From: an uncultured Candidatus Saccharibacteria bacterium
GTDB taxonomy: Bacteria; Patescibacteriota; Minisyncoccia; Phycocordibacterales; UBA9973
NCBI GenBank assembly: GCA_964500465.1
Contig: CAZCNB010000003.1
Span: 13,882 to 77,881 of the forward strand
Direction of reading: 5' to 3'
Length of the DNA stretch: 64,000 bases
The first letter of the stretch is position 1. Each line of letters starts with the position of its first letter. Below are positions 1 through 63,285 of the stretch, one piece after another. The notes under the pieces are model-generated. The model was not told the DNA's origin and searched no databases. It saw nothing but the letters and a program-made list of their open reading frames with translations. The translations under genes were made by a program, and so were the position numbers.

Positions 1-664
1 GTCTTGCATGGTTAATATCTCTTGCATCACCATTCCCTATTATTTTTGTTTTTACACCCATTTTGTTTCTAATTTCTACTACCTCCTTTACATGTTCCCA
101 TCTAGCAGGAACTAGAGACATCTCCTTTCTTGTACGTGCATGTATTGTAAGCGCTGCTATATCTTGAGAAAGTAAAAATGGAATCCATTCATCTATTTGA
201 ACTTTATTATAACCAACACGAGTTTTTACAGACACAGGAATATCACAGCCAGCGTCTTTTATCCCATCTTTAACTGCCTGTATTATGATACCTGCCATTT
301 TTGGATTTTTTATCATAGCAGCTCCTGCTCCTTGTTTTTCTATCGATCGATCTGGGCAACCCATATTTATATCTATACCATCAAAACCAAGTAAGGCTAC
401 AAATTTTGATGCCTCGCGCATTTTATCTGGATGAGAAGAAAACAATTGAGCAACTATAGGCCTTTCGCCTTCAGTAAACATGAGATCGTATTTCAATACT
501 TCACGACCTTTACTTGCAAGTCCATCTGCTGATACAAATTCAGTCCAAGTAACATCTGGTTTTCCATACTTAGAGATAATACGACGAAAAGCGGCATCAG
601 TGACATCAGCCATTGGTGCCAAAACAAAGAACGGTTTTGGTAGTTTTTCCCAGAAGTTATTCAT
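1..664 (-). CDS. tRNA-dihydrouridine synthase (Dus family), C-terminus runs off window start
   Basis: Reverse-strand translation begins MNNFWEKLPKPFFVLAPMADVTDAAFRRIISKYG..., the Dus FMN-binding N-terminus (APMAD, later GCP). No stop before position 1, so the gene is partial. Confidence 0.75.
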   Translation of the reverse strand, partial: MNNFWEKLPKPFFVLAPMADVTDAAFRRIISKYGKPDVTWTEFVSADGLASKGREVLKYDLMFTEGERPIVAQLFSSHPDKMREASKFVALLGFDGIDINMGCPDRSIEKQGAGAAMIKNPKMAGIIIQAVKDGIKDAGCDIPVSVKTRVGYNKVQIDEWIPFLLSQDIAALTIHARTRKEMSLVPARWEHVKEVVEIRNKMGVKTKIIGNGDARDINHAR

Positions 665-672
665 TTTAAATA

Positions 673-1536
673 TTATTGAAATTTATATAAAACCTTATTT
701 TTAAATCTCATATCTATATATAAAAGATTAGTATACTTAGAATTAATTTCGCTTGCAAATGATTCTTGTGACATAGCGAGTGCGAAATTTTCTGAAAGCT
801 TTTCCAAGTCATCTTCTGTCTTAAAAATTATTTTAGGGTTAGTAGAATTAATTTCGTGATCAAGATATAAAGAACTATTACCTTCTTCATCTATAATCAA
901 GTGTGTTGGCTTTAACTTAAATTTAATAACGTTATCTATTAATCTTACATAGGAGTAGAATTTTTCTGATGGTAAAAATTTCTGCCCGAGAGGATTATTT
1001 ACATCGGAAATAGGACCATAGTATTTAAAATATATATTCCCTGAAAAATATGGGGCTCTATCAAATATATATCCGTCATCATTGATAAAGTAACAATTTT
1101 CACCAATATCGTATTCAGTTTCAGGTATATTTTCCCCACAATAAAGCCCAGTACCGGAACGCTCAGATATATCTAAATTCAGTGTATTTATATTACTAAG
1201 GTAAATAGATAATTTATCTATTCTGGTAAAATTGCTGGTTAAGTGTTTATATATTCTTTCTTTTGGATATAAAAATATATTCCTCTTATCAAAGAGTTTA
1301 AAATATTTACCAGAAATATAACTATTCACATTTTCTTCAATATCAGTGGAGTTAATAATTCGTGTACCAGTAATAACTATTTTATTTATTGTAACTCTAT
1401 GATTTGAAGAAAAATAACCGAGAGCGTAAACAATTGATAAAATTAATATTATTAACAGTGCAGACAACCTAATCCTGCGCGCACGAGCTTTGCGCTTCAT
1501 ATCTTCTACGCGCGGTGATGTCAAAATATCTTTCAT
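673..1536 (-). CDS. FtsQ/DivIB-like cell-division protein (N-terminal TM anchor plus POTRA-like region)
   Basis: Basic N-terminus, then one TM helix (LSALLIILILSIVYALGYF). The extracytoplasmic part has a POTRA-like pattern (RVTINKIVITGTRIINSTDIEENV ... DKLSIYLSNINTLNLDISER). Confidence 0.55.
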   Translation of the reverse strand: MKDILTSPRVEDMKRKARARRIRLSALLIILILSIVYALGYFSSNHRVTINKIVITGTRIINSTDIEENVNSYISGKYFKLFDKRNIFLYPKERIYKHLTSNFTRIDKLSIYLSNINTLNLDISERSGTGLYCGENIPETEYDIGENCYFINDDGYIFDRAPYFSGNIYFKYYGPISDVNNPLGQKFLPSEKFYSYVRLIDNVIKFKLKPTHLIIDEEGNSSLYLDHEINSTNPKIIFKTEDDLEKLSENFALAMSQESFASEINSKYTNLLYIDMRFKNKVLYKFQ

Positions 1537-1545
1537 GGTTTGTAG

Positions 1546-2808
1546 CTAGCGAATTACCTCTTTGCCAAAATACTTTTGTAGAACTTCTGGAATTTTTATA
1601 CTACCATCTTCTTGTTGAAAGTTTTCTATCATTGAAACCAAGATACGAGGTGTAGGTATAGCGGTACAATTCAAAGAGTGAGTATATCTAACCTTACCTT
1701 CTTCATCTCTATATCTTATTCCTAGACGCCTAGTTTGAAAATCATGGAAATAAGAAGCAGACGATATTTCTCGGTATTTTTCTTCTTTAGGGATCCAAAG
1801 ATTAGTATCGTACATTCTAACTTTTGCAAAACCCATGTCTCCAGTACAAGCATCTACGACTTGATACGGGATTCCTAGTGACTGTATAAATTCTTCAGTG
1901 TTTTTCTGAATTTCTTCATGATGCTTTACTGACTCTTCATGACTACCCTCGCACAAAATAACTTGTTCAAATTTATAGAACTCATGTACGCGAATTAAAC
2001 CTTTTATATCCTTGGTATGACTTCCAGCTTCTAAACGAAAACAGGGAGAAAAACCCAACATCTTTATAGGTAATTGATTTTTATTTAGAATCTCATCCAT
2101 ATACATACCCATAAGAGGAACTTCTGAAGTTCCAACAAAATAAGTATCATCTTGTGCTTTATATATATCTGCTTCGCCTTGTGGAATAAATGCGCAACCT
2201 AGGAGTGGTTCTCGCTTTGTGTTTATTGGGGGTATTATCGGATTGAAACCTCTACCGCCCCAGAAATCTAAAGCATAATTCCATATAGCAAAACATAACC
2301 TAACACCATCTCCAGTCAAAAAATAACCACGAAAACCATGGACCTTGGTACCACGTTCAATATCTAACATTCCCAACTTTGTCATTATTTCTATATGATC
2401 TTTTGGTTCAAAAGAAAATTTAGTTTTTTCACCCCAAGTTCTTATTTCAATGTTATCATCTTCAGATTGTCCAAGTGGAGAAGTTGGTTCAGGAATATTT
2501 GGAACAAGTAGCATCATTCCTTGCCATTCTTTTATAACGTCACGAAGAAGATCTTCTTTTTCTTTGAGTTCTTCTTTAACTATTCGCATCTCCTCTATCA
2601 TCTGAGATCTAACAACTTGATCAACGTTTCCACCCATGGAGTTACTTACTTTATTTTGTTCACTACGTAAAAATTCTACTCGAGCAAGAATTTCTAATCT
2701 TTTATCATCTAAAGCAATCAACTGATCAAGGTCAATACTGAGATGCTTTTTCTCTACTGCTTCTTTGACTATATCCTTATTTTCTCGAATAAATTTGATA
2801 TCTAACAT
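1546..2808 (-). CDS. serS: seryl-tRNA synthetase
   Basis: N-terminal coiled-coil arm and a class II core (TGDGVRLCFAIWNYALDF, GTSEVPLMGMYMDEIL, RLEAGSHTKD...). Length 420 aa. Confidence 0.9.
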   Translation of the reverse strand: MLDIKFIRENKDIVKEAVEKKHLSIDLDQLIALDDKRLEILARVEFLRSEQNKVSNSMGGNVDQVVRSQMIEEMRIVKEELKEKEDLLRDVIKEWQGMMLLVPNIPEPTSPLGQSEDDNIEIRTWGEKTKFSFEPKDHIEIMTKLGMLDIERGTKVHGFRGYFLTGDGVRLCFAIWNYALDFWGGRGFNPIIPPINTKREPLLGCAFIPQGEADIYKAQDDTYFVGTSEVPLMGMYMDEILNKNQLPIKMLGFSPCFRLEAGSHTKDIKGLIRVHEFYKFEQVILCEGSHEESVKHHEEIQKNTEEFIQSLGIPYQVVDACTGDMGFAKVRMYDTNLWIPKEEKYREISSASYFHDFQTRRLGIRYRDEEGKVRYTHSLNCTAIPTPRILVSMIENFQQEDGSIKIPEVLQKYFGKEVIR

Positions 2809-2856
2809 ATGGTTCCAGTATATAAAAAAATGCTAGAATAGACAAATAGATAATTT

Positions 2857-3720
2857 ATGGATTTGATTATAAAATTAAAACCAGAAAAATTCCCTAAACC
2901 ACTGACTGAAATACCTCAACCACCCAAAGAATTGTACATACGTGGAACCTTACCTCCATCTGACTATACTTACCTTACTATTGTAGGATCTAGGAAATAC
3001 ACATCTTACGGAAAAGAAGTTTGTGAGAAACTCATAAAAGGATTAAAAGATTATCCTATAATTATAGTTTCAGGGCTCGCACTTGGAATAGATTCTATAG
3101 TCCACAGATCAGCATTGTCCAATGGACTTATAACTCTTGCTATGCCTGGATCTGGTGTAGATAACAAAGTTATTTATCCAAGAACGAATATGAATCTTGC
3201 AGAGGATATAATAAGAAACGGCGGATGTATCATGTCAGAGTTTCCACCAACAATGAAAGCAGAATTATATACATTTCCTAAAAGAAATAGGCTGATGGCA
3301 GGAATATCAAAAGCAACTCTTATAATAGAAGCGGTAGAAAAATCTGGAACTTTAATAACTGCAAGGATGGCCCTTGATTATAATCGTGATGTACTAGCAG
3401 TTCCGGGATCAATATTTTCTAATTCTTCATCGGGTACCAATAGATTGATAAGGCAAGGTGCAACACCAATAACAAATAGTAACGAATTGCTGGAAGCGTT
3501 GGGTTTTGAGGTTAATAATGAAACAAGTGAATCAGTAGATAGATATAAAGAATGTGGTAAAGATGAATTAAAAATTATTTCACTTTTAGATGAACCTATG
3601 GAAAGAAATGAATTGATAAGAGCATCTGGAATGGAAATATCTGAAGCTAGTGCGCTTCTTTCTATAATGGAAATAAAAGAACTAATTAAAGAGGAGCTTG
3701 GAGAAATAAGAAAGGTTTGA
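2857..3720 (+). CDS. dprA: DNA processing protein DprA/Smf
   Basis: IVGSRKYTSYGKEV...IIVSGLALGIDSIVHRSAL...AVPGSIF Rossmann-like DprA core. Sits immediately upstream of topA, the conserved dprA-topA pairing. Confidence 0.85.
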   Translation: MDLIIKLKPEKFPKPLTEIPQPPKELYIRGTLPPSDYTYLTIVGSRKYTSYGKEVCEKLIKGLKDYPIIIVSGLALGIDSIVHRSALSNGLITLAMPGSGVDNKVIYPRTNMNLAEDIIRNGGCIMSEFPPTMKAELYTFPKRNRLMAGISKATLIIEAVEKSGTLITARMALDYNRDVLAVPGSIFSNSSSGTNRLIRQGATPITNSNELLEALGFEVNNETSESVDRYKECGKDELKIISLLDEPMERNELIRASGMEISEASALLSIMEIKELIKEELGEIRKV

Positions 3721-3740: not shown

Positions 3741-5993
3741 ATGTTACTAATTAAGGCAATGACAAAATTATTGATTGTAGAATCTCCATCAAAGGCAAAA
3801 ACTATTGAGAAATATCTCGATGGAGCTTTTACTGTACGTGCTTCAGTTGGACATATAAGAGATCTTCCTAAATCAAATAAGCAAGCTATAGATATAGAAG
3901 CTGGATTTGTTCCGCATTACGAAATATCAAAAGGTAAAGAAAAAGTAGTAAGTGAATTGAAACATTTAGCAGAAAAATCTTCAGAAATTATGCTCGCTAC
4001 CGACCCAGATCGCGAAGGCGAAGCTATATCTTGGCATTTAAAAGAAATATTAAATAATGATAAAAAAATAAAAGGTAAAATAAAACGAGTTACTTTTCAT
4101 GAAATTACCAAAGAAGCTGTGGAGGAAGCTTTAAAAAGCCCTCGTAATATTGATGATAATTTGGTAAAAGCCCAAGAAGCACGTAGAGTTTTAGATAGGC
4201 TTGTAGGTTATGATTTATCTGGAATAATTTGGAAAAAAGTAAGATATGGACTATCTGCTGGAAGAGTTCAATCCCCTGCTCTTCGTATAATAATGGAGCG
4301 TGAACGTGAGATAAGAGCATTCGTTCCAGAAAAATATTTTATTCTTGAAGGATTATTTGAGACTAAAAAGAAAGAAAAAATAACACTATCTTGCACAGAA
4401 GAGCCTCGTGATGAAAAAGTTGTAAAAAAAATATTAGAACTTGGAAAGCAAGAGAAGTGGTTCGTAAAAGATTTAAAAACATCAGAACAAAAAAGAAGCC
4501 CTAGGGCTCCTTTTACAACTTCTACGTTGCAACAAACAGCAAGTACTAGACTTGGTTTTTCACCTTCTCGAACAATGCAAGTGGCACAGAAACTGTATGA
4601 ACAAGGATTTATTACTTATATGAGAACTGACAGCACAAATCTAGCAACTGTTGCACAATCACAAATAAAAAAAATCATTGAAAGTAAATATGGTAAAGAC
4701 CAAGTTGAGATAAGATCATATAAAACAAAATCAAAAAATGCTCAGGAAGCTCATGAAGCAATACGTCCAACTCACGTAGAATCAATGAACGAAGGATCCA
4801 CAGACGAACAAAAAAGATTATATAGACTTATCTGGGAACGTACAGTAGCATCACAAATGGTAGATGCTAAGTTAATGAAGACAAAAATCACAGCAAATAT
4901 AAAACAGGGAGATGTGCCTGATTTTGTCGCAAATGGTTCGCGAGTGATTTCTCTGGGATGGCTTCTGTGTGATACAGAAGCAAGAGGTGATGATGTAGAA
5001 CTTCCACTAGTTGAAATTGGTGAAGAGTTAAAACTACTTGAATTAAAAGATATAGAAAAATTTACTGAACCTCCAAATAGATATACTGAAGCAGGGTTGG
5101 TTAAAGAACTTGAAGCTCGTGGTATAGGCAGACCTAGTACTTACGCTTCAATAATGAAGACAATTGAAGAACGTGGTTACGTAAACAAAGAAGGAAGGAC
5201 TCTTTTCCCCACTGATACTGGAGATGTTGTCTCAAGTTTCTTAGAACAAAACTTTGCTGAATATATTAGTGACACATTCACAGCTGAAATGGAAGATGAA
5301 TTGGATGAAATATCTCGTGGAGAGAGAGAATATGTAAAAACTTTAAAAGATTTCTACACACCTTTCAAAAAAGAACTTAAAGAAAAAGACAAGTTGGCAA
5401 AAGCAACTAACATGGGTGAAGCTCCTCCTGATATGCTATGCCCTAAATGTAAATCGCCTATGATTATAAAACTTGCTCGTAATGGCAAATTTTATTCTTG
5501 TTCAAAATACCCTGATTGTGACGGAGCACGTACAATAGAAGGAAATGTACTCGAAGGACCAAAAGAGACCGGGGAAATGTGTCCACTTTGTGGAGATAAA
5601 AAAGGAAAATCTGGAGGAGGAAAACTAGTTATTCGCGAAAGACGTGATGGTACTGGCACATTCATATCTTGCTCAAGATATCCTAAATGTAAATTTATAA
5701 AACAAGATGAAGAAGAGTTAAAAAGAAAAATGACAGATGTAACTTGTCCTGTGTGTGGCAAAGGAAAAATGACGGAACGTCGTGGTAGATTTGGAATATT
5801 TTATTCATGTAGTAATTATCCAGATTGTAAAAATGCTATAAAAGCAAAACCAACCGGTAGAATATGTGAGCTTTGTGGATCACTTATGATGGAAGGTACG
5901 AAAACAATTCCAGAGAGATGTTCGAACAGAATGTGCAAAATGCATAATCCGCATAAACTAGGTGAAAATCTAAAGAATAATAAGAAAAAATAA
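3741..5993 (+). CDS. topA: DNA topoisomerase I with C-terminal Cys4 zinc-ribbon repeats
   Basis: Toprim start LLIVESPSKAKTIEKYL, active-site region QKLYEQGFITYMRTDST, and four CxxC...CxxC zinc ribbons at the C-terminus. The ORF track begins at TTG 3738; the first ATG is 3741 and an alternative ATG lies at 3759. Confidence 0.9.
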   Translation: MLLIKAMTKLLIVESPSKAKTIEKYLDGAFTVRASVGHIRDLPKSNKQAIDIEAGFVPHYEISKGKEKVVSELKHLAEKSSEIMLATDPDREGEAISWHLKEILNNDKKIKGKIKRVTFHEITKEAVEEALKSPRNIDDNLVKAQEARRVLDRLVGYDLSGIIWKKVRYGLSAGRVQSPALRIIMEREREIRAFVPEKYFILEGLFETKKKEKITLSCTEEPRDEKVVKKILELGKQEKWFVKDLKTSEQKRSPRAPFTTSTLQQTASTRLGFSPSRTMQVAQKLYEQGFITYMRTDSTNLATVAQSQIKKIIESKYGKDQVEIRSYKTKSKNAQEAHEAIRPTHVESMNEGSTDEQKRLYRLIWERTVASQMVDAKLMKTKITANIKQGDVPDFVANGSRVISLGWLLCDTEARGDDVELPLVEIGEELKLLELKDIEKFTEPPNRYTEAGLVKELEARGIGRPSTYASIMKTIEERGYVNKEGRTLFPTDTGDVVSSFLEQNFAEYISDTFTAEMEDELDEISRGEREYVKTLKDFYTPFKKELKEKDKLAKATNMGEAPPDMLCPKCKSPMIIKLARNGKFYSCSKYPDCDGARTIEGNVLEGPKETGEMCPLCGDKKGKSGGGKLVIRERRDGTGTFISCSRYPKCKFIKQDEEELKRKMTDVTCPVCGKGKMTERRGRFGIFYSCSNYPDCKNAIKAKPTGRICELCGSLMMEGTKTIPERCSNRMCKMHNPHKLGENLKNNKKK

Positions 5994-22444: not shown

Positions 22445-22472
22445 AACCCCCTTACTTTAAGGGGGTTTTATC
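22443..22472. terminator. bidirectional rho-independent terminator
   Basis: aaaaccccctta-ctt-taagggggtttt between convergent genes. Confidence 0.85.
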
Positions 22473-24431
22473 TTAATTACCTGAATTAATTTTTTCTTGA
22501 CTTGTAGCGCTAAACACTCCATCAGGTGTAATACCTTTTGATTTTTGCCAAGCTTTAACTTTTAAAGCAGTACCTTTACCATAAATACCATCAGCTTTTA
22601 TTCCTAGTTTTTTCTGGAGGGATTTAACATCATCACCTTTGGAGCCTATCTTGAGAGTTCTTTTTGGAGTAAATGGAGTTTCCATTATTTCATCATCTTT
22701 TTGTCCAGCTGTTAGTATTTTGAAATAGGAATCAGACATATCATTTTCTCCAGTTGTAGTATTAGTATTCCACCAATATACAACTACTCTATAGTAGTTA
22801 CTACCTATGGTTTTAGTAAAGTTAGGGAGAGTAAAATCTGCACTTCCTGAACTTGCTAACACACTTCCTCCAACATCATTTACTAAAATAGTAACTGGAC
22901 TACCATTCTCATCAGCAGGTGCCTGTGTTTGTCCATCTTTTTGGAGATGCTCAAGAGTTACCCCTACATGTTGACCCATTGGAGCATTTGGACAACTCCA
23001 TTTAACAGTGATTTTCTGTCCAGCTTTATAAATTTCACCACCATTAGGTGATAGCAGCTTGAATTTAGAACTATTAGGGTTTTTGGTACAAACCGTTGGA
23101 ATTATTCCAGTATCATTTATACTAAAGTTATTATCACTATAATCTTCAACTATTTGCTGAGTAGATGTGCCAGCTTGACCTCCAATTAGTACATTTACAA
23201 GAATTTTATAGTGGTTACCTCCATATATATTTTGATAATGTTTTGGCAATGTACTATTAAATGTAGGTGGTGCAATAAAACTATATTCATAAACATTTTC
23301 ACTTCCGTTTGAAGATATAAGTTTTGCATAATTAAGTGCTGGAGAACTTCCAAAGAGTGATAGTGTCTGCCAATCGGCGATACGGTCATCCATGACTGCT
23401 ACGAGGGTATCCGGATTTTGTTTTATGTTATTAGTTTTCCATTTTATAGTTATTTTATCGCCAGAAGCATAAGACTCTCCCCCATTTGGAGAAATCACAA
23501 CTATTGAAGGAATATTATTATCAATAACTCCTTGTACACACTTTGTTGTCACTACTGCTAGTGTATGTGGTCCACCGGTGTTATATTTTTCACGCCAAGT
23601 GGTAATTGTTTCGTTCTTATAATCTTCTACTGAAGTTGTTTTAGGATAAAACTTCTGGCAGTATTCAAGTTTCCTATCTCCATATCCTTCGCTTCCCCAT
23701 TGTTGATACGTACCTGCACCAGATACTCCATCAGGATCTGTAAGCCACTCACCATTTGATCCAATATGTTGATTTACCTTTCCATACCACATAGCTATGC
23801 GGGGAGTAAAATCGTTAGTAGGAGGGTAAATTATAGTATCAACAACACATTTTATAGTCATTACAGACAGAGGGTAAGGTCCACCAGTATTACCTGCTTC
23901 ACGCCAACCGTTTATCATTTCATTTGTATAATCTGAAACTGATGTAGTATTTGGATACCATTTTTTACAATATGTAAGTTTATCTAGATTAGCTCCTGAA
24001 GTTCCATCGGGGTCAGTTAGCCAATTTCCAGTAGAATCAACATGTTGATTCACCTTACCCCACCAATAAGCAATGCGTGGTGTTTTGTCCAGAGAAATCT
24101 TATCTTGTACACACTTGTCTGAGACAACAGTATTTGTATATCCACTTTGTTCATAGGATATGGCTCTACGCCAAGTATCTATAGTTTCTGACTGATAAGG
24201 AACAACTGAAATAGTATTGGGGTACCATTTTCTACAATATGCTAATTTGTCTAAATTAGCTCCAGATGTTCCATCTGGATCAGATTGCCATGCCCCATAC
24301 GCATCTATATGCTGATTTACCTTTCCATACCAATACATTATGCGAGAAGTAGTATCTGGTATATTAGCTTGCGCATGACCAGCCATTAGAAGAGATCCTA
24401 GAAAAACAAAACCTAAAAGTACTTTTTTCAT
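22473..24431 (-). CDS. secreted cell-wall-binding protein: signal peptide, 3 tandem ~95-aa repeats, two Ig-like SPNGGE domains, C-terminal peptidoglycan-binding domain
   Basis: Signal peptide MKKVLLGFVFLGSLLMAGHAQA. Three repeats follow, each beginning RI(M/A)YW(Y/W)GKVNQH...W(Q/L)(S/T)DPDG(T/V)SGA...(Y/E)YC(R/K/Q)K(W/F)YP(N/K)T(I/T)SV...W(R)(R/E)...KC(V). Two Ig-like modules are present (ISPNGGESYASGDKITIKWKT and LSPNGGEIYKAGQKITVKWSCPN). The C-terminus reads LKIGSKGDDVKSLQKKLGIKADGIYGKGTALKVKAWQKSKGITPDG, as in PG_binding_1. Confidence 0.7.
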   Translation of the reverse strand: MKKVLLGFVFLGSLLMAGHAQANIPDTTSRIMYWYGKVNQHIDAYGAWQSDPDGTSGANLDKLAYCRKWYPNTISVVPYQSETIDTWRRAISYEQSGYTNTVVSDKCVQDKISLDKTPRIAYWWGKVNQHVDSTGNWLTDPDGTSGANLDKLTYCKKWYPNTTSVSDYTNEMINGWREAGNTGGPYPLSVMTIKCVVDTIIYPPTNDFTPRIAMWYGKVNQHIGSNGEWLTDPDGVSGAGTYQQWGSEGYGDRKLEYCQKFYPKTTSVEDYKNETITTWREKYNTGGPHTLAVVTTKCVQGVIDNNIPSIVVISPNGGESYASGDKITIKWKTNNIKQNPDTLVAVMDDRIADWQTLSLFGSSPALNYAKLISSNGSENVYEYSFIAPPTFNSTLPKHYQNIYGGNHYKILVNVLIGGQAGTSTQQIVEDYSDNNFSINDTGIIPTVCTKNPNSSKFKLLSPNGGEIYKAGQKITVKWSCPNAPMGQHVGVTLEHLQKDGQTQAPADENGSPVTILVNDVGGSVLASSGSADFTLPNFTKTIGSNYYRVVVYWWNTNTTTGENDMSDSYFKILTAGQKDDEIMETPFTPKRTLKIGSKGDDVKSLQKKLGIKADGIYGKGTALKVKAWQKSKGITPDGVFSATSQEKINSGN

Positions 24432-24503
24432 AATAAAATGATAGATTTATTCCTTTAAATTGATACATGTTAATGTTAGCATCTACAATGTTTTCGTCAA
24501 TAA

Positions 24504-24531: not shown

Positions 24532-24732
24532 TTATTTTGCTATGTAAGGCAGAAGTCCCATAAAGCGGGCACGTTTGATAGCTAGAGATAGCTTTCTTTG
24601 ATTCTTAGCTGTAACGTCAGTACGATTGCGAGACATCATGCGAGCAGATGGTGCAAGGAATTTTCTTAATAGATCAACATCTTTATAATCTATATGTTTT
24701 ATATTGTTTGATGAAAAATAATCTTGTTTCAT
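24532..24732 (-). CDS. rpsR: 30S ribosomal protein S18
   Basis: 66 aa, IDYKDVDLLRKFL...RMMSRNRT...QRKLSLAIKRARFMGLLPY. Last gene of the rpsF-ssb-rpsR operon. Confidence 0.9.
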   Translation of the reverse strand: MKQDYFSSNNIKHIDYKDVDLLRKFLAPSARMMSRNRTDVTAKNQRKLSLAIKRARFMGLLPYIAK

Positions 24733-31862: not shown

Positions 31863-33767
31863 CTATTGTATAACACGTTCTTGCCCAGGTTTAAAGTATG
31901 GGTCATCTCGTAATAATGTTGTAATAGGACCACGCTTACTTTTTACTGTTGTATTTGTAAACATGTCTGTACCAGAAAGATACACATCTTTCATAAGCTG
32001 TGGAACACTTCCGATTTGAGAACTTGAAGGAGAAAGTGATAGAGTAAACGTAACTTCACGATTTCCATCTATTCCAGTATTAGGTCTAACAGTTCCTATA
32101 TCCCATAGAACTTCGTGTGTGACATCATTGTAAGACACTTTTTCTTTACCATCTCCAACAGCTCCTACCCATCTAATATATATAGGTAGAGAAGATCTAG
32201 CTTGAGCTTGATTTATGGTATTAGCTGAATTTGAAAGTGTCCAGGTTACATTATATCTTGTTTCATTTTCAGCTTTTGGTGGAATAGGACCTGACAGAGC
32301 CGATGCAGATGATGCAATCTGGAAATCCGAAGTTAACTTAACAATCTTTTTTGTAAAATCATCTACACTACTTGAAGAACCTTCAGAAGGTTGTTTACCT
32401 CTAATACTTACTTGTAATACCACTTGCGGTTCTTTAATAGAATTACGAGAACCGACAAGAGAGACCGGTTTAAAATTAAATCCAACAACACCACTTGCTC
32501 CTGGCTCTATAGAAGCAAGTTCTGGAATAGTATTTTTATCCCAAACAATCTGATTATTTGCAGAGTCATAGAACCCTTCAAGTGGATTTACTTCACTTTT
32601 ATCAAAAACATTCCCAGAAAATCCTAAGATGATTTGAGCATCAGTTATTCGAGTTTGTAAGTTATTTGACCAAGCAATTTCTCCATCAACTTGTTCACCT
32701 CCTGAAGCTGTATATGTAGGCAGATCTTGGCCACCAACCAAAATACGAGCTTCTAAGAATGGCTTAGTAAGTGATATTGTTTTCAAGAGTGAGTTATAAA
32801 CAACATTTACTACAGATTGATCACTAGGGCTTGTAGTACCAGCATAAACATGGAAAACTTGTTCATCACCATCTTGACCTATCAAACGCCCTTTTATATC
32901 TATAGAAATAGGATTAGTTTGAGTTAACCCATCAAGGTTCCATATAGTATTACCAAAAGAAGGAGCTGGGGTTGCACTTTCAAAGGCAAAGTTATTTGGA
33001 TATGTTACCTGAAGCATAGTTGCACCTTCTGGAAGAGTAGTATTTAACGTTACTTTTACCTTAAAAGAAATAACCTGATCCGAAGTAGCTGTATCTGGAG
33101 CTTCTACGATTAGTGAAAGTGGGGCGGAGCTTATTGATACAGGGTAATCTTTTTCTTTTGCAAATATTGCATTTGATCCCTCTGGATGATATTCGAGTGT
33201 AACCTTAATGTTTCTAATCGATTTTTCTTCTCCAAAAAGTGTAACTTTCTTACTAAGCGTTACACTTGAACCCTTTTTAATTAAACCAATATTTTCACGA
33301 GGAAGGCGGACCATATCGTTCGGATTATCACTTGCGCCACGTGGATATTCTACAACTAAGTTAGCAAGTTCCAAATTTGCATTGTTGCGATTTGTTATCT
33401 CTATCTGTAACGGTAATTCATCTCCCCCTTTTGTAAATGCATTACCTAAAACTTTTATATCGATATTTTCATTTGAAACAGACACTCCACCATTTAGAAA
33501 CATGTATGTAGAAAAAAGTATCGCTCCAATAAAGAATATTAGTGCAACAAAAAAGAATTTCTTAAACACAGAGGTATGAGGTTTTTTAGTAGAAGTATTT
33601 GGTAATGTATTATCAGAACTTTCAGATTCACCATGCCAACTAGTTGGTACTGGATGAGCAACAGGATGGAGAGTTCCTGCATGAGGACGATTAGTGACTT
33701 TATCTTCACGATCATAAAGTCTTCGCTTAATATCTTCTATTCGACTCCTATATTCATTTTCTGCCAT
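31863..33767 (-). CDS. hypothetical type-II membrane protein with large extracytoplasmic beta-rich domain
   Basis: A ~70-aa cytoplasmic N-terminus (charged, His/Pro-rich), one TM (FFFVALIFFIGAILFSTYMF), then ~540 aa rich in T/S/N/V with no motifs I recognise. Confidence 0.5.
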   Translation of the reverse strand: MAENEYRSRIEDIKRRLYDREDKVTNRPHAGTLHPVAHPVPTSWHGESESSDNTLPNTSTKKPHTSVFKKFFFVALIFFIGAILFSTYMFLNGGVSVSNENIDIKVLGNAFTKGGDELPLQIEITNRNNANLELANLVVEYPRGASDNPNDMVRLPRENIGLIKKGSSVTLSKKVTLFGEEKSIRNIKVTLEYHPEGSNAIFAKEKDYPVSISSAPLSLIVEAPDTATSDQVISFKVKVTLNTTLPEGATMLQVTYPNNFAFESATPAPSFGNTIWNLDGLTQTNPISIDIKGRLIGQDGDEQVFHVYAGTTSPSDQSVVNVVYNSLLKTISLTKPFLEARILVGGQDLPTYTASGGEQVDGEIAWSNNLQTRITDAQIILGFSGNVFDKSEVNPLEGFYDSANNQIVWDKNTIPELASIEPGASGVVGFNFKPVSLVGSRNSIKEPQVVLQVSIRGKQPSEGSSSSVDDFTKKIVKLTSDFQIASSASALSGPIPPKAENETRYNVTWTLSNSANTINQAQARSSLPIYIRWVGAVGDGKEKVSYNDVTHEVLWDIGTVRPNTGIDGNREVTFTLSLSPSSSQIGSVPQLMKDVYLSGTDMFTNTTVKSKRGPITTLLRDDPYFKPGQERVIQ

Positions 33768-35970: not shown

Positions 35971-38900
35971 TTAAGATATTGTTATAGTAAAGATCAGTTC
36001 ATCGATCTTTACTTCTACCCCACTATTTTCAGCTATATCAATCCGCTCTGCGCCTACAATTTTCAAAAGTTCGTCTTTCCAAGTATTGATCAAATCCTGT
36101 CCATCTACACTTGTTGCAATTTTTAGAGTTACTACATCGCTTGGATTTAACCCTTTTTCTTTTCGCATATCTTGAATAGCTCTTATGAGTTCACGATATT
36201 GTCCCTCTTTTTTCAAATCAAGAGTTATATGAGCATCCAACACAACAGGACCATCTATAGATTCATTATAAATAACTTCTTTTATATTTAACTCATCTTT
36301 AACAATCTCTACAAAAGGGTCATTCAAAACATAGCTCTTTACGCTTAGAGACTTTAAGGGTTGGCGAACTTTGATACCTGCTTTCTGACGAGCTTCAAGC
36401 CCTAGGGTTACCACATGACGAACGATACTCATTTCTGAAATTATATTTTCATCAATCTGCTCTACCTTAGGCCAATCTGAAAGGTGCACACTTTCAACAT
36501 CTTTACTATTTTTTAACTTTTGCCAAATACTCTCTGCTATAAAAGGAGTAAACGGAGCCATAAGTTTAACTGTTGTTTTTATAACTTTATATAAAGTTTC
36601 TTTTGCATCCTTATCTCCATCTTTTAATCTTTCTCTTGAGCGACGAAGATACCATGTAGAAAGATCTTCTATAAATAGATCAAACGGTCTTGTGGAAAGT
36701 GACATGTCATACATTTCCATATTTTTTGTAACTTCGTCTATAAGTTGTCCTAATCGAGCATTTATCCATCTGTCCAAAACATTTTCACTTTTACTTTCTC
36801 CACTATTCTCAAAATTAGTATCTCGATACAATTCGTAGAATGTTACTACGTTTTCAAAGCGAGAAATTATTTTACTTGCAATATCTTGGACTGATTTTTC
36901 AGAGAAATTTACATCTTCCCCTTTCATTACAGGACAAGACATTAAGTAGAAACGTAGTGCGTCTACCCCATATTTATCGAAAAGTATCCATGGATCAGGA
37001 AAATTGTTTTTAGATTTAGACATTTTCTGACCATCTTCAGCCAAAATTGTTCCAGTTGTAACAATATTTTCAAATGGTGCTTTTCCAAACAAAATAGTTG
37101 AAATTGTGTGAGTATAGTAAAACCATGTCCTCGTCTGAGCTATATATTCTGCCACAAATCCTGCTGGGAAATTGGTTTTTTGCCAATCTTCCCTTTCGAA
37201 TGGGAAATGATCTTGAGCGAAAGGCATTGAACCAGATTCAAACCAACAGTCTATAACCTCAGGAATACGGTAATATTCTTCTCCATCTTTTTCAATAGGG
37301 ACAAAATCAATATACGGCCTATGAAAATCTAGATCGTAGTCTTTGTTATGAGGAAAATACGTAAAAGGCAATTCTTGTACTTGCGCATTATTAAGATAGT
37401 TGTAATTCTCTTTATTTCTGATTAGTTCAAGCGTCTCTTCTATGCTAAATAAAGATGCGCCAGCTATCATAAGCCATGCGGGGCCTCCATGGGTAACTAT
37501 TAGAATTTTTTTATTTTTATATTGTTCTTCAAGTTGGAATAAAAAACTCATCGCTCGGCGCTTAACATCTAGATAAGACTCGTTCCCCTCTGGAGCATTT
37601 GCAAAATTTTCAACTGTTTTTGGATAAAGAGTATGATACTCTGCCCATGTACGACCTTCATACATAGGTAGAGATATCTCATGAAGTCGATCATCGAGAA
37701 TTATTTGCTCATCAGATAGACCTAAAATATCTTGAACTATTTTTGTTGTTTCCCTTGTACGATTAAACGGAGAAGTAATTATAAGATCTATGCCTTTATC
37801 TTTCATATCAAGAGCACTGGCGCGCACTTGTTCTTGTCCTTTTTCTGTAAGGTGACTACCGCTGTTTGTAACAGTATTTACAACATTTTTTACATTATGA
37901 TTTGTCTCACCATGGCGCATCACAAAATAAGTATTGCCAGATTTTTTGGTATGAGCTTTTAATTCTTCATTAGATTTTATAAACAAAATTTCACCAGCCT
38001 TATTTTTCCAAATAGGAAGTGGGCTTGCCCAATAACGATTACGGGATATAGTCCAATCTGGAGCACTTTCCATGGTATTTTTGAATCTGCCTTCTTTTAA
38101 GTGAGATGGTATCCAATTCATGGATTTGGCACTTGAAAGCATTTCATCTTTTGATTTTTGAATATTCACAAACCACGAAGGAAGTGCGTAGTACAAAAGT
38201 GGCGTATCGCATCTATAACAATGAGGATATGAGTGTATTATTTTTTCTTTTGCAAAAAGAGCACCTGCGTGAGCAAGGTATTTGATAATGGCTATATCAG
38301 TAGATTGATGATCTTCTTTTGGCTTTGCTTTCATTCCTATAAAATCTGTGACAATATTTGAAAACACTCCATTGTGTTCAACATGGCGTATAAAAGATAT
38401 ATGATTCTCTTCCGCGAGTTTCATGTCTTCTTCTCCGAATGCTGGAGCTTCATGAGCAATACCTGTTCCTTTATCTATAGTTACAAAATCGGCATGCCAA
38501 ACTCTCCATATATTATTTTTACCCGGAATATCAATATCTTTGTAATAAGTAAACACTGGCTCATATGTAAGACCTGTAAGCTCATGCCCTTCAACTTTTT
38601 TTACAAATTCTGGATTTACAAACTTATCTTTTAACTTTTCATATGATTCAGGAGTTAAAATCAATATTTCTTTTCCAGTTTCAGGGGTATGAGATATAAA
38701 TACGTAAGAAAGATTATTGTTTACTGCGATTGCGGTATTGCCTGGTAGTGTCCATGGAGTCGTGGTCCAAGCCAAAAGATATGTTGGAATTTCAGAATCT
38801 ATATTTAATTTAAATTTTACATAAACAGATATATCTGTTATATCTTTATAGCTGTTATCCATAGCAATTTCAGAATTTGCTATTGGTGTCTCACAACGTG

Positions 38901-39483
38901 GACAATATGCGAGAACCCTAACACCTTCATATAGAAGACCTTTTTTATTCATTTCACCAAGCGCCCACCATACACTCTCTATAAAAGAGTTATCCATTGT
39001 TTTGTAAGAATTTTCAAAATCAACCCAGCGACCGATTCGATCTACTGTTTTTTTCCATTCAGAAACATATGTTAAAACTTTACTACGAGCATGCTCAGTG
39101 AATTTTTCAACACCAAACTTTTCTATTTCCTTTTTACCAGAAATACCTAGATCTTTTTCCACTATATTCTCAATAGGTAATCCATGACAATCCCAACCCC
39201 AACGACGTGGTACTCTGAAACCTCTCATAGTCTGATAGCGACCAATAACATCTTTGGCAGTGGAACCAAGTATGTGACCATAGTGAGGAAGTCCAGTTGC
39301 AAATGGTGGTCCATCGTAGAAAACGTAATTTCCTTTTGGAGCATCTTTATCTAAACTTTTTTTGAAAGTATCATTCTCCTTCCAGAAATTTAAAATTTCT
39401 TCTTCGCGAATTGCAATGGAAGATTTTTTATTATCTATTTCTTTTGAATATCCTTTTGTTGGTTTTTCTTCGTTTCCTTGCAT
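35971..39483 (-). CDS. ileS: isoleucyl-tRNA synthetase, type 2 (eukaryote/archaeal-like), carrying an inserted histidine-phosphatase (PGAM-like) domain
   Basis: YDGPPFATGLPHYGHIL (HIGH region), a CP1 editing domain, WTISRNRYWASPLPIW, IDCWFESGSMPFAQ, and KMSKSKNN. Between the ISRNRYW segment and CWFESG lies ~170 aa with RHGET...SPFNRTRETT...VTHGG. The ORF-track start 39558 overlaps the leader terminator; ATG 39483 is the likely start. Confidence 0.85.
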   Translation of the reverse strand: MQGNEEKPTKGYSKEIDNKKSSIAIREEEILNFWKENDTFKKSLDKDAPKGNYVFYDGPPFATGLPHYGHILGSTAKDVIGRYQTMRGFRVPRRWGWDCHGLPIENIVEKDLGISGKKEIEKFGVEKFTEHARSKVLTYVSEWKKTVDRIGRWVDFENSYKTMDNSFIESVWWALGEMNKKGLLYEGVRVLAYCPRCETPIANSEIAMDNSYKDITDISVYVKFKLNIDSEIPTYLLAWTTTPWTLPGNTAIAVNNNLSYVFISHTPETGKEILILTPESYEKLKDKFVNPEFVKKVEGHELTGLTYEPVFTYYKDIDIPGKNNIWRVWHADFVTIDKGTGIAHEAPAFGEEDMKLAEENHISFIRHVEHNGVFSNIVTDFIGMKAKPKEDHQSTDIAIIKYLAHAGALFAKEKIIHSYPHCYRCDTPLLYYALPSWFVNIQKSKDEMLSSAKSMNWIPSHLKEGRFKNTMESAPDWTISRNRYWASPLPIWKNKAGEILFIKSNEELKAHTKKSGNTYFVMRHGETNHNVKNVVNTVTNSGSHLTEKGQEQVRASALDMKDKGIDLIITSPFNRTRETTKIVQDILGLSDEQIILDDRLHEISLPMYEGRTWAEYHTLYPKTVENFANAPEGNESYLDVKRRAMSFLFQLEEQYKNKKILIVTHGGPAWLMIAGASLFSIEETLELIRNKENYNYLNNAQVQELPFTYFPHNKDYDLDFHRPYIDFVPIEKDGEEYYRIPEVIDCWFESGSMPFAQDHFPFEREDWQKTNFPAGFVAEYIAQTRTWFYYTHTISTILFGKAPFENIVTTGTILAEDGQKMSKSKNNFPDPWILFDKYGVDALRFYLMSCPVMKGEDVNFSEKSVQDIASKIISRFENVVTFYELYRDTNFENSGESKSENVLDRWINARLGQLIDEVTKNMEMYDMSLSTRPFDLFIEDLSTWYLRRSRERLKDGDKDAKETLYKVIKTTVKLMAPFTPFIAESIWQKLKNSKDVESVHLSDWPKVEQIDENIISEMSIVRHVVTLGLEARQKAGIKVRQPLKSLSVKSYVLNDPFVEIVKDELNIKEVIYNESIDGPVVLDAHITLDLKKEGQYRELIRAIQDMRKEKGLNPSDVVTLKIATSVDGQDLINTWKDELLKIVGAERIDIAENSGVEVKIDELIFTITIS

Positions 39484-39700
39484 ATATAAAATAAAAACTC
39501 GTCCGCGTACAACAATTATAATAATTGCTATACAAGGACGAGTTTCTCGTGGTACCACCTTGCTTACTTCTCATTTTGTAGGGCTCTACTTCCAAAAAGG
39601 TTTCTTCCCCAAGCTCCAGAGTGATATCTCTTTCATCGCTTATATTTAAAGATTACTATATAAAACACATTTTTGCAAAGCTTGCATTTTATTTATCAAA
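39484..39700 (-). promoter_or_regulatory. T-box riboswitch leader of ileS (antiterminator, terminator, upstream stem region)
   Basis: On the mRNA strand the antiterminator reads CAAGG-UGGUACC-ACGAG-AAA-CUCGU-CCUUG, with the 7-nt bulge UGGUACC inside the T-box sequence AAGCAAGGUGGUACCACGAG. An overlapping terminator AAACUCGUCC...GGACGAGUUUUUAUUUU ends ~8 nt before the ATG. The upstream leader contains GAUAUCA, a candidate AUC specifier. Confidence 0.75.
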
Positions 39701-61959: not shown

Positions 61960-63285
61960 ATGCCTTTAATACATTCTTTTGTTAATATTTTCGCTGGTGG
62001 AAGAAGTGAGGCTAAGGTTTTTTTATTCTTAATTTACCTAGTGACACTTTTTGTAATTTATAAAATTATTACAAATAAAAAACCTTTAAAGAATCTGGAT
62101 TGGAAATGGTTTGGTTTTGGCTTGCTTAGTTTATACTTATATGGATTATTTTTACAAATAGCGTATACAAAAATACTTGGGGTAAAAGTTACAGATTTTA
62201 TAATAACTGGTAATAATGGTGAATTATCTAGTTCTACATTATCGCACACCCATGTAGCCAAAGGATTTATAGGGGTCATACTTTCAAAATTGGGCTACGC
62301 TGACCTTTCAAAAGTTGATGCTGGTGGTGCCTATATAGGACTTATCCCAAATATTCTATTTTATATAGGATCTGTATTACTTATTTTGGTTCTTGTACAA
62401 GCTTTATACTATTTTGCATCATCATACTATTCAAAAATTAATTATCTAAATATCAGGCAAAAATTGTTCTTAATAATAGGATACGGAATATTATCTTTTT
62501 CAATAATAAAAACTGCAATAGACGGGGGTCTATTTAATTATGGATTTTATGTAAGTATTATATTTATATGGGCATTTTACAAACAACAAAAAAACGAATT
62601 GATTAATAAATATTATTACTTATTTACATTTTTTGCTTTATTACTATTAATTATAAACTTATTTCTAATAGACATAGATCCTAGTTTGTCTCTTCTTCTA
62701 GGCGGTATATCAGCGATGATATTGCTTTATGAAATATTACTTTATTTGGGTAAGGAAAAGATCCGACTTCAATTTTTAGTTCCAATAGTATTAATATTTT
62801 TTGGGTCATGGTGGCAAGCAGGAGCACGTGATCTAGATATATATAATTATGGAGAAAATATGATAGAAACTGGACAGAATTTTTATACTTATAATAAAAG
62901 TATTAAAGAAGTAGTAAAAAATAAAGCACAAGGAAATATTAAGATTCACAAAATAGCAACAGATATGGATAAGAATGAAAGTTATTTGCCAATAACAGTT
63001 GCTGGTATAACTTGTATGGAAAAAAGCTATCCACAAGAAGTATCTATGGAGCTACTTACAGATAAACCTATAAATAGAGAAATTGATACTCAAAAAAACT
63101 TTATTTCAATTAAAAATGAAAAATCTGTAGAGCTTGGTGGGTATTGGAAAACCAATTTACATATTTATATGAATCCGTGTTTACCAGAACCCCTCTCTGT
63201 AATAGATGGTATGATTAGAAAATCAGATATAAATAAATACTTTATAATAAATCCAACTTTTTATGATCAAACTAACGTTCTATAA
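61960..63285 (+). CDS. polytopic membrane protein immediately downstream of the pilin pair; function unknown
   Basis: About 9-10 TM helices, then a ~140-aa C-terminal soluble domain. No motif recognised. Confidence 0.45.
   Translation: MPLIHSFVNIFAGGRSEAKVFLFLIYLVTLFVIYKIITNKKPLKNLDWKWFGFGLLSLYLYGLFLQIAYTKILGVKVTDFIITGNNGELSSSTLSHTHVAKGFIGVILSKLGYADLSKVDAGGAYIGLIPNILFYIGSVLLILVLVQALYYFASSYYSKINYLNIRQKLFLIIGYGILSFSIIKTAIDGGLFNYGFYVSIIFIWAFYKQQKNELINKYYYLFTFFALLLLIINLFLIDIDPSLSLLLGGISAMILLYEILLYLGKEKIRLQFLVPIVLIFFGSWWQAGARDLDIYNYGENMIETGQNFYTYNKSIKEVVKNKAQGNIKIHKIATDMDKNESYLPITVAGITCMEKSYPQEVSMELLTDKPINREIDTQKNFISIKNEKSVELGGYWKTNLHIYMNPCLPEPLSVIDGMIRKSDINKYFIINPTFYDQTNVL

Follow-up and report, generated by a model that had tools for sequence, protein, structure and literature searches.

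What would a reduced-genome bacterium hold out on its surface with a secreted protein that repeats one domain three times in tandem? This question is raised by a gene at positions 22473-24431 on the reverse strand of a 64-kb stretch of DNA (64,000 nucleotides of contig CAZCNB010000003.1, hereafter the window) from an uncultured Candidatus Saccharibacteria bacterium, the translation of which yields a protein of 652 amino acids. An earlier note on this DNA had described a Sec-secreted protein with three repeats of ~95 residues that matched no known domain, two immunoglobulin (Ig)-like modules and a C-terminal domain resembling PG_binding_1, and had proposed a role in host attachment or glycan binding. 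Here we report that each repeat is, by sequence and predicted fold, a clear member of the family of the growth-factor-like domain (GFLD; Pfam PF02177, APP_N) in amyloid precursor protein (APP), and we weigh what such a protein may do on the cell surface.

The repeats belong, by sequence and predicted fold, to the APP growth-factor-like domain family

The three tandem repeats, of ~92-100 residues each, span residues 23-116 (repeat 1; 24084-24365, reverse strand), 117-208 (repeat 2; 23808-24083, reverse strand) and 209-308 (repeat 3; 23508-23807, reverse strand). The whole protein matched PF02177, APP_N ("Amyloid A4 N-terminal heparin-binding"), in three stretches with a score of 77.5 bits (E 1.1e-21), and repeats 1, 2 and 3 scanned singly scored 29.2, 31.4 and 34.5 bits, respectively, all above the gathering cutoff of 22.1. 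A phmmer search of the Protein Data Bank (PDB), which is independent of Pfam's APP_N model, returned APP E1/GFLD chains (7mrn, 7mrk, 4pqd, 1mwp, 4jfn and 3ktm) with E-values of 1e-5 to 4e-4, repeat 3 being matched in this way to 7mrn, 1mwp, 3ktm and 4pqd. Alignment of a microbial-only profile of 63 sequences to human APP (residues ~28-120) using hhalign gave a probability of 98%, an E-value of 2e-13 and 33% identity. Taken one at a time, the repeats thus match a well-characterised domain, and the earlier note's view that they resemble none is not upheld; the interest of the protein remains.

The fold leads to the same family. Modelled by AlphaFold without templates from the microbial alignment, repeat 2 had a predicted local distance difference test score (pLDDT) of 91.9 and a predicted fold of the GFLD type, with beta-sheets packed on one alpha-helix as in 1MWP. 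Comparison of this model with the PDB using Foldseek gave 17 matches at E <= 0.001, every one of which was a GFLD of APP or APLP2, and the next match stood at E 0.87; this too contradicts the assignment to an unknown domain. The top matches superposed with TM-scores of 0.78-0.79 and a root-mean-square deviation (rmsd) of 1.5-1.8 Å over 87-89 columns at ~30% identity, while the 17 together ranged from TM 0.71 to 0.79, with an rmsd of 1.5-2.4 Å for most and 6.8 Å for two chains.

The likeness to the GFLDs of animal APP, APLP1 and APLP2 (1MWP, 4PQD, 3KTM, 4PWQ; predicted fold at TM 0.78 and 1.7 Å over 88 columns) runs along the whole domain, as the motifs I-x-x-x-G-[KR]-[VL]-N-x-H, G-x-W-x-[ST]-D-P-x-G, L-x-Y-C-x-x-x-Y-P and, at the end, C-[VL] are shared. 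In repeat-2 numbering, K10, N12, Q13, H14, D24-P-D-G and K41 make up a conserved surface. Our alignment of the repeats reproduced the skeleton read from them previously (RI.YW.GKVNQH...W..DPDG.SGA...YC.K.YP...KCV, with two invariant cysteines). In every repeat the two conserved cysteines fall opposite C73 and C117 of APP, the pair bonded in the central GFLD disulfide, so that the suggestion that they are bonded to each other is well founded. Equivalents of the C38-C62 and C98-C105 disulfides are absent from all three repeats in the alignment to APP, and the basic hairpin between C98 and C105, through which APP binds heparin (KRGRKQCKTHPH; residues ~96-110), is replaced by the neutral loops REAGNTGGPYPLS, RRAISYEQSGYTNT and REKYNTGGPHTLA. 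The isoelectric point (pI) of the repeats is 5.0-6.0, versus 7.85 for the human GFLD and a median of 6.9 across domains of the family, and ~13% of their residues are aromatic.

These differences bear on whether the repeats might act narrowly as APP does, by binding sulfated or polyanionic, heparin-like glycans or copper. Family membership and fold identity with a heparin-binding GFLD speak for such an action, and the structural matches include heparin-induced APP GFLD dimers (3ktm) and a copper-bound GFLD (4jfn), but with the basic hairpin exchanged for neutral loops, both loop cysteines gone and the repeats slightly acidic, we consider it quite improbable. Because the repeat surface is neutral-to-acidic and aromatic-rich, a polyanion such as heparin is probably not the ligand. 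Heparin binding simply carried over from the name of the Pfam family was rejected, as the loop is not conserved.

Judged from its sequence, the window protein is homologous to APP at the level of the domain only. Pfam found none of APP_Cu_bd, APP_E2 or APP_amyloid in it, and a transmembrane helix and the YENPTY tail are also missing; lacking the copper-binding domain, E2, the helix and the tail, it is not an APP orthologue. In both proteins the GFLD would be extracellular, N-terminal and at the distal end of a surface-attached protein, a placement that is predicted for the window protein. Where APP has one GFLD and a membrane anchor, the window protein has three tandem copies, a peptidoglycan-binding anchor and a bacterial host.

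The triplication is real and old

The three repeats share 59% and 58% protein identity in pairwise BLASTP comparisons (E 3e-35 and 3e-37), far beyond chance, and their position (23508-24365) bears out the tandem array of ~95-residue units noted earlier at ~23.5-24.36 kb. Repeat 3 has an 11-residue insertion, GTYQQWGSEGY, ahead of the helix, and the same insertion subtype is present in other genomes. DNA identity between the copies is 68-75%. Tandem Repeats Finder reported no array in the DNA because the copies are too diverged, and this divergence itself argues against an artefact. Eight contigs, each assembled independently and together representing at least four samples (SRR6837570 and SRR6837583 are among those that carry the gene), encode the identical 652-residue protein, which, together with the DNA divergence, excludes the assembly collapse or expansion that the earlier note had named as a possible undoing of its claim.

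The same data bear on the broader suspicion that the gene reflects animal contamination, was transferred very recently from an animal, or owes its triplication to assembly. Its best-characterised relatives are animal proteins, which could raise such a suspicion, but it does not differ in GC content from the bacterial genes around it, its locus is syntenic in 10 related genomes, and identity to APP is only ~30%. Added to the independent contigs and the diverged repeats, these observations refute contamination and assembly artefact, and we give this explanation practically no chance.

The protein is predicted to be secreted and anchored to peptidoglycan

The first ATG of the APP_N gene lies five codons past an upstream stop codon, and the start codon and the peptide MKKVLLGFVFLGSLLMAGHAQA (residues 1-22; 24366-24431, reverse strand) open the protein. 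As read from the sequence, its n-region is basic, a hydrophobic core follows, and it ends in AQA, in the layout MKK / VLLGFVFLGSLLMAG / HAQA-N, in agreement with the Sec signal peptide claimed earlier. It lacks a lipobox cysteine, and the proteins that occupy the same position in related genomes begin with similar peptides. The protein is thus predicted to be a Sec-type secreted substrate of signal peptidase I with an AXA-type motif. Neither Pfam nor NCBIfam detected a catalytic domain in the 652 residues; an identity as SleB was discarded, as the NCBIfam match was below threshold and arose through the peptidoglycan-binding domain.

An AlphaFold model of residues 306-652 (347 residues; pLDDT 79.7) contained two beta-sandwich modules and a three-helix bundle. 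The modules lie at residues 309-440 (23112-23507, reverse strand), of the SPNGGE...KITIKW type, and 455-575 (22707-23069, reverse strand), and Foldseek matched the model to tandem Ig/FN3 pairs in the PDB, in keeping with the two Ig-like modules proposed before. Both open with an SPNGGE...W motif through which they weakly resemble the Kre9/KNH-like Ig domain (PF10342, Kre9_KNH), but this match reached 15.4 bits against a cutoff of 24.6, and scanning the modules singly gave zero matches; just the term "Ig-like", for a generic Ig/FN3-like fold, is therefore justified. A cysteine at ~449, in the linker before the second module, and another at ~483, in its KW-S-C-N strand (about 22983-23087), are found as a pair in many homologues (C...PSITVLSPNGGE...VKWKSCN), which suggests a conserved disulfide pinning the linker to this module.

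The three-helix bundle (residues 589-649; 22485-22667, reverse strand) matched PF01471, PG_binding_1, with 36.2 bits against a cutoff of 23, and AlphaFold placed its helices at model residues 295-303, 314-326 and 337-345, so that the C-terminal domain recognised in the earlier note was confirmed. It is strongly basic, with a pI of 10.1, and phmmer matched it to the peptidoglycan-binding domains of an endolysin (7rum) and an amidase (4xxt) in the PDB. Wall proteins anchored by PG_binding_1, including SleB-type cortex-lytic enzymes, endolysins and amidases, likewise carry a basic three-helix module at one terminus; the window protein differs from them in that its cargo consists of binding and stalk modules, not a hydrolase.

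A conserved slot holds a variable protein

The APP_N gene is directly downstream of an rpsF-ssb-rpsR cluster, with the gene for ribosomal protein S18 (66 residues; 24532-24732, reverse strand) between ssb and itself. On this side the window further encodes TatD, MetRS, an AI-2E family transporter and an M16 peptidase beyond S18, SSB and S6, and on the other side a convergent pseudouridine synthase, an MFS transporter, RNase J and an SBP_bac_5 solute-binding protein. No further copy of the repeat domain was found in any other open reading frame (ORF) of the window, and no signs of mobile elements were seen around the gene. The 100-nucleotide gap between rpsR and the gene contains a promoter-like TTGACG, 16 nt, TG-TAACAT arrangement (24473-24500, reverse strand), identified by a consensus scan in a region where such matches are as numerous as expected from shuffled sequence, and the scan placed a hairpin with a T-run 3' of rpsR. 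A bidirectional terminator-like hairpin, CCCCTTAAAGTAAGGGGG, with a T-run separates the gene from that of the convergent pseudouridine synthase (22447-22465). As a promoter-like pair and flanking hairpins are present, all of them consensus matches only, the gene looks like a transcription unit of its own.

The TatD-S6-SSB-S18-X-RluA-MFS-RNase J block, where X stands for the APP_N gene, is syntenic in 10 species-level genomes, and the flanking proteins are 71-93% identical to those of the window. The host is of the Patescibacteria type, in support of the reduced-genome organism proposed earlier. The protein encoded at X is only 29-50% identical to the window protein and always carries an APP_N-like domain, but in 1-3 copies and in varying order; copy-number variation in related genomes, which the earlier note had recommended examining, is thus evident. 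With A for APP_N, i for an Ig-like module and P for PG_binding_1, the window protein reads AAAiiP and its counterparts AiP, Aiiii, Ai, AP, AAP, AiAiP, iAP or Aii. The closest counterpart of repeat 1 elsewhere is a repeat in protein P0018 at 84% identity, and the two repeats of P0010 match repeats 2 and 3 at 92% and 94% identity, respectively. Because the repeats are nearer to counterparts in other proteins (84-94%) than to one another (58-59%), modules appear to have been shuffled, which indicates that the three repeats are distinct, old subtypes that get reshuffled. A conserved slot with varying modules is the behaviour of a fast-evolving interaction protein, and the pattern is one that pressure to change would be expected to leave in a surface protein.

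This variation also bears on whether the protein instead organises the envelope, its modules binding the producer's own wall glycopolymers or surface layer so as to cross-link or space the envelope. A conserved position among core housekeeping genes, right after rpsF-ssb-rpsR, would suit such a structural role, as would relatives with PG_binding_1 at both ends or beside APP_N and an aromatic-rich, neutral domain surface fitting glycans of any origin. A structural component would, however, be expected to keep a stable architecture, whereas here copy number and order shift while the neighbours stay 71-93% identical, and the domain also occurs in archaea that have no peptidoglycan and in proteins that have no wall anchor. 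We therefore regard an envelope-organising role, the chief alternative to the reading favoured below, as unlikely, if deserving of some weight.

Three other ORFs of the window stood out. At 35971-39558 (reverse strand), a class I tRNA synthetase of 1195 residues contains a His_Phos_1 histidine-phosphatase domain (residues 545-708) between its catalytic-domain match (55-541) and its C-terminal synthetase and anticodon-binding matches (831 onward). The ORFs at 31863-33767 (reverse strand, 634 residues) and 61960-63285 (forward strand, 441 residues) had no Pfam match at E <= 1e-5.

APP_N-like domains form a large microbial family

When a profile was run exhaustively against 1.84 billion cluster representatives, 662 proteins, counted as clusters at 50% identity, reached E <= 1e-3, and 221 of them reached E <= 1e-30. 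Among the 150 matches listed, proteins carried 1-4 copies of APP_N and ranged from ~100 to 1,666 residues. The family is visible only through this search and a genome scan, as a word-indexed protein search returned 4 matches with one repeat and short proteins only with a mixed profile. The scan, in which two narrow peptide patterns were applied to a single genome of each prokaryotic species, found 54 loci, most of them in Patescibacteria (Paceibacterota/Parcubacteria, Nomura-, Komeili-, Kuenen-, Peri- and Gracilibacteria). Several were in metagenome-assembled genomes (MAGs) labelled Saccharibacteria, where the neighbouring genes resemble those of the Paceibacteria loci. Other loci lie in DPANN archaea (Micrarchaeota, Woesearchaeota, Nanoarchaeia) and Poseidoniales archaea, and further ones in Myxococcota MAGs (Sandaracinaceae, Haliangiales) and one gammaproteobacterial MAG. 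We found no relatives among the viral contigs of IMG/VR, and thus no evidence for a viral vector.

Of 55 genome-derived proteins, 35 reached E <= 1e-3 for APP_N (best 3e-34), 18 also carried PG_binding_1, and five passed the Kre9_KNH threshold that the window modules do not reach; their other partner modules, namely CARDB, PKD, PPC, Big, TSP, Kazal and Pacifastin, are all extracellular. Among the 154 best representatives, PG_binding_1 was present in 62 and the same Ig-like module as in the window protein in 71, usually in the order A..i..P or its mirror P..i..A, the anchor being terminal and APP_N lying toward the opposite end. The two-cysteine pattern equivalent to C73/C117 was kept in 213 of 228 related domains. 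Rare members have further cysteines: a pair in FWCGKVNQH...SGC aligns with APP C38-C62 in P0044 and P0052 (Nanoarchaeia MAG), and a TFCxxxxxxC loop pair aligns with C98-C105 in P0051 and P0090, so that every one of the three APP disulfides is present in some non-animal member.

The inhibitor-type partners raise the question of whether the window protein could be a decoy, inhibitor or defence protein that neutralises enzymes or toxins secreted by competitors. Archaeal members do fuse the domain to protease-inhibitor modules (Kazal in L039, Pacifastin in L052), but such fusions are few, and neither the window protein nor the 10 same-slot proteins contain an inhibitor module; we consider this very improbable.

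Several members illustrate the range of the family. P0172 (European Nucleotide Archive, ENA; 169 residues) joins an APP_N-like domain to a dockerin (PF00404), which suggests that the domain has been recruited into cellulosome-like assemblies in some organisms. A single archaeal protein on a Woesearchaeota MAG contig (L037; CAYVFP010000063, ORF 99-3344) has five near-identical tandem APP_N-like copies, a recent amplification, unlike the old, diverged copies of the window. P0051 (483 residues; gene 1102-2553 of locus L059, ENA ERZ27287267, k119_1585146) combines a signal peptide and three APP_N-like domains, in which the loop cysteine pair is of the APP type, with Ser-rich linkers and, toward its C-terminal end, a transmembrane helix and a poly-Arg tail. 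Its gene adjoins that of a TCTP (PF00838), a eukaryotic family, for which a search yielded no close relatives with names, and the protein has the appearance of a single-pass membrane protein from a unicellular eukaryote. Locus L060 (ENA ERZ23491246, scaffold_9381) encodes a Cys-rich secreted protein of 260 residues with two APP_N-like domains (P0090 and P0161; gene 4170-4952) on a densely packed stretch with DHFR, glutaredoxin and many ORFs without a Pfam match, for which a large virus and a compact eukaryote are possible origins.

Four loci (L046-L049) in Myxococcus qinghaiensis, 'Comamonas sp. KCTC 72670', Corallococcus terminator and Myxococcus eversor were set aside as not secure members, as they fail the Pfam APP_N test. 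Their proteins, of ~860 residues, contain the N-terminal half of the domain only (GRIAYWWGKVNLH...HDTDCTSGANLD...YCRKFWP). The 'Comamonas sp. KCTC 72670' record has 68% GC and a protein aligning closely with those of Myxococcus, and its organism name may be wrong.

The window protein may act as a multivalent surface binding protein

We favour, with moderate confidence, a reading in which the window protein is anchored to the wall and binds in a multivalent manner at the cell surface, making contact with a glycan or protein of another cell or surface. Sec export and cleavage of the signal peptide would put the mature protein outside the membrane, where the basic C-terminal bundle, a PG_binding_1 domain, would attach it non-covalently to the cell's own peptidoglycan. 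The two beta-sandwich modules, Ig-like in the model, may then serve as a stalk, and the three N-terminal GFLD homologues would be presented outward as a multivalent binding tip. The GFLD of APP is itself an extracellular ligand-binding and adhesion module, and the repeats most probably play a role of the same type. The host-attachment or glycan-binding role proposed in the earlier note is consistent with this architecture and with the variation across genomes.

In design the protein resembles modular Gram-positive surface adhesins, which combine a wall anchor, Ig-like spacers and strain-variable tip modules. It differs from these in its predicted non-covalent anchor, in having no LPXTG sorting signal and in its APP_N tip; to our knowledge, the APP_N fold is not a known adhesin tip domain.

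Several points weigh against this reading. The heparin-binding loop is not conserved and the pI of the repeats is low (5.0-6.0), so that the best-known biochemical activity of APP cannot simply be transferred to them. Relatives of the PAP and PAAPi types, with PG_binding_1 at both ends or APP_N beside the anchor, are harder to reconcile with distal display. The signal peptide was recognised by eye from the sequence alone. Lastly, no mur genes turned up among the window ORFs scanned; Patescibacteria do have a cell wall.

Origin of the APP domain and significance

An evolutionary analysis of APP found no related sequences in single-celled organisms (PMC3660159), with which the large prokaryotic APP_N family described here contrasts. 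Our full-text search of the literature found no paper discussing prokaryotic members. Databases automatically tag some proteins of the family with PF02177, and the family assignment itself is therefore not new; what is new is the setting of a known fold, in architecture and taxonomy and probably also in function.

This distribution makes it possible, and we put it forward tentatively, that the APP GFLD is not an animal invention but part of an old, diverse family of surface domains of prokaryotes, from which the animal version was acquired or with which it has a common ancestry. The idea is supported by the concentration of the family in the ultra-small lineages of Patescibacteria and DPANN archaea, by its greater diversity outside animals (662 clusters in two domains of life, with many architectures), and by the occurrence of each APP disulfide in some non-animal member, along with a member, P0051, that looks unicellular-eukaryotic. 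Patescibacteria and DPANN archaea have been reported to be largely episymbiotic, and in these lineages the domain may therefore be a module by which cells attach to one another.

Few human proteins have been studied as much as APP, yet the physiological role and the origin of its N-terminal domain are poorly understood. The microbial family would provide an outgroup for reconstructing ancestral GFLD surfaces, as it has the core and the central disulfide in common with APP and the heparin-binding loop appears to be an addition, and its members are simple proteins, with apparently one disulfide per domain, in which to study what the fold binds. For Patescibacteria and DPANN archaea, in which little is known of the molecular basis of cell-cell attachment, the domain is a candidate surface-interaction module.

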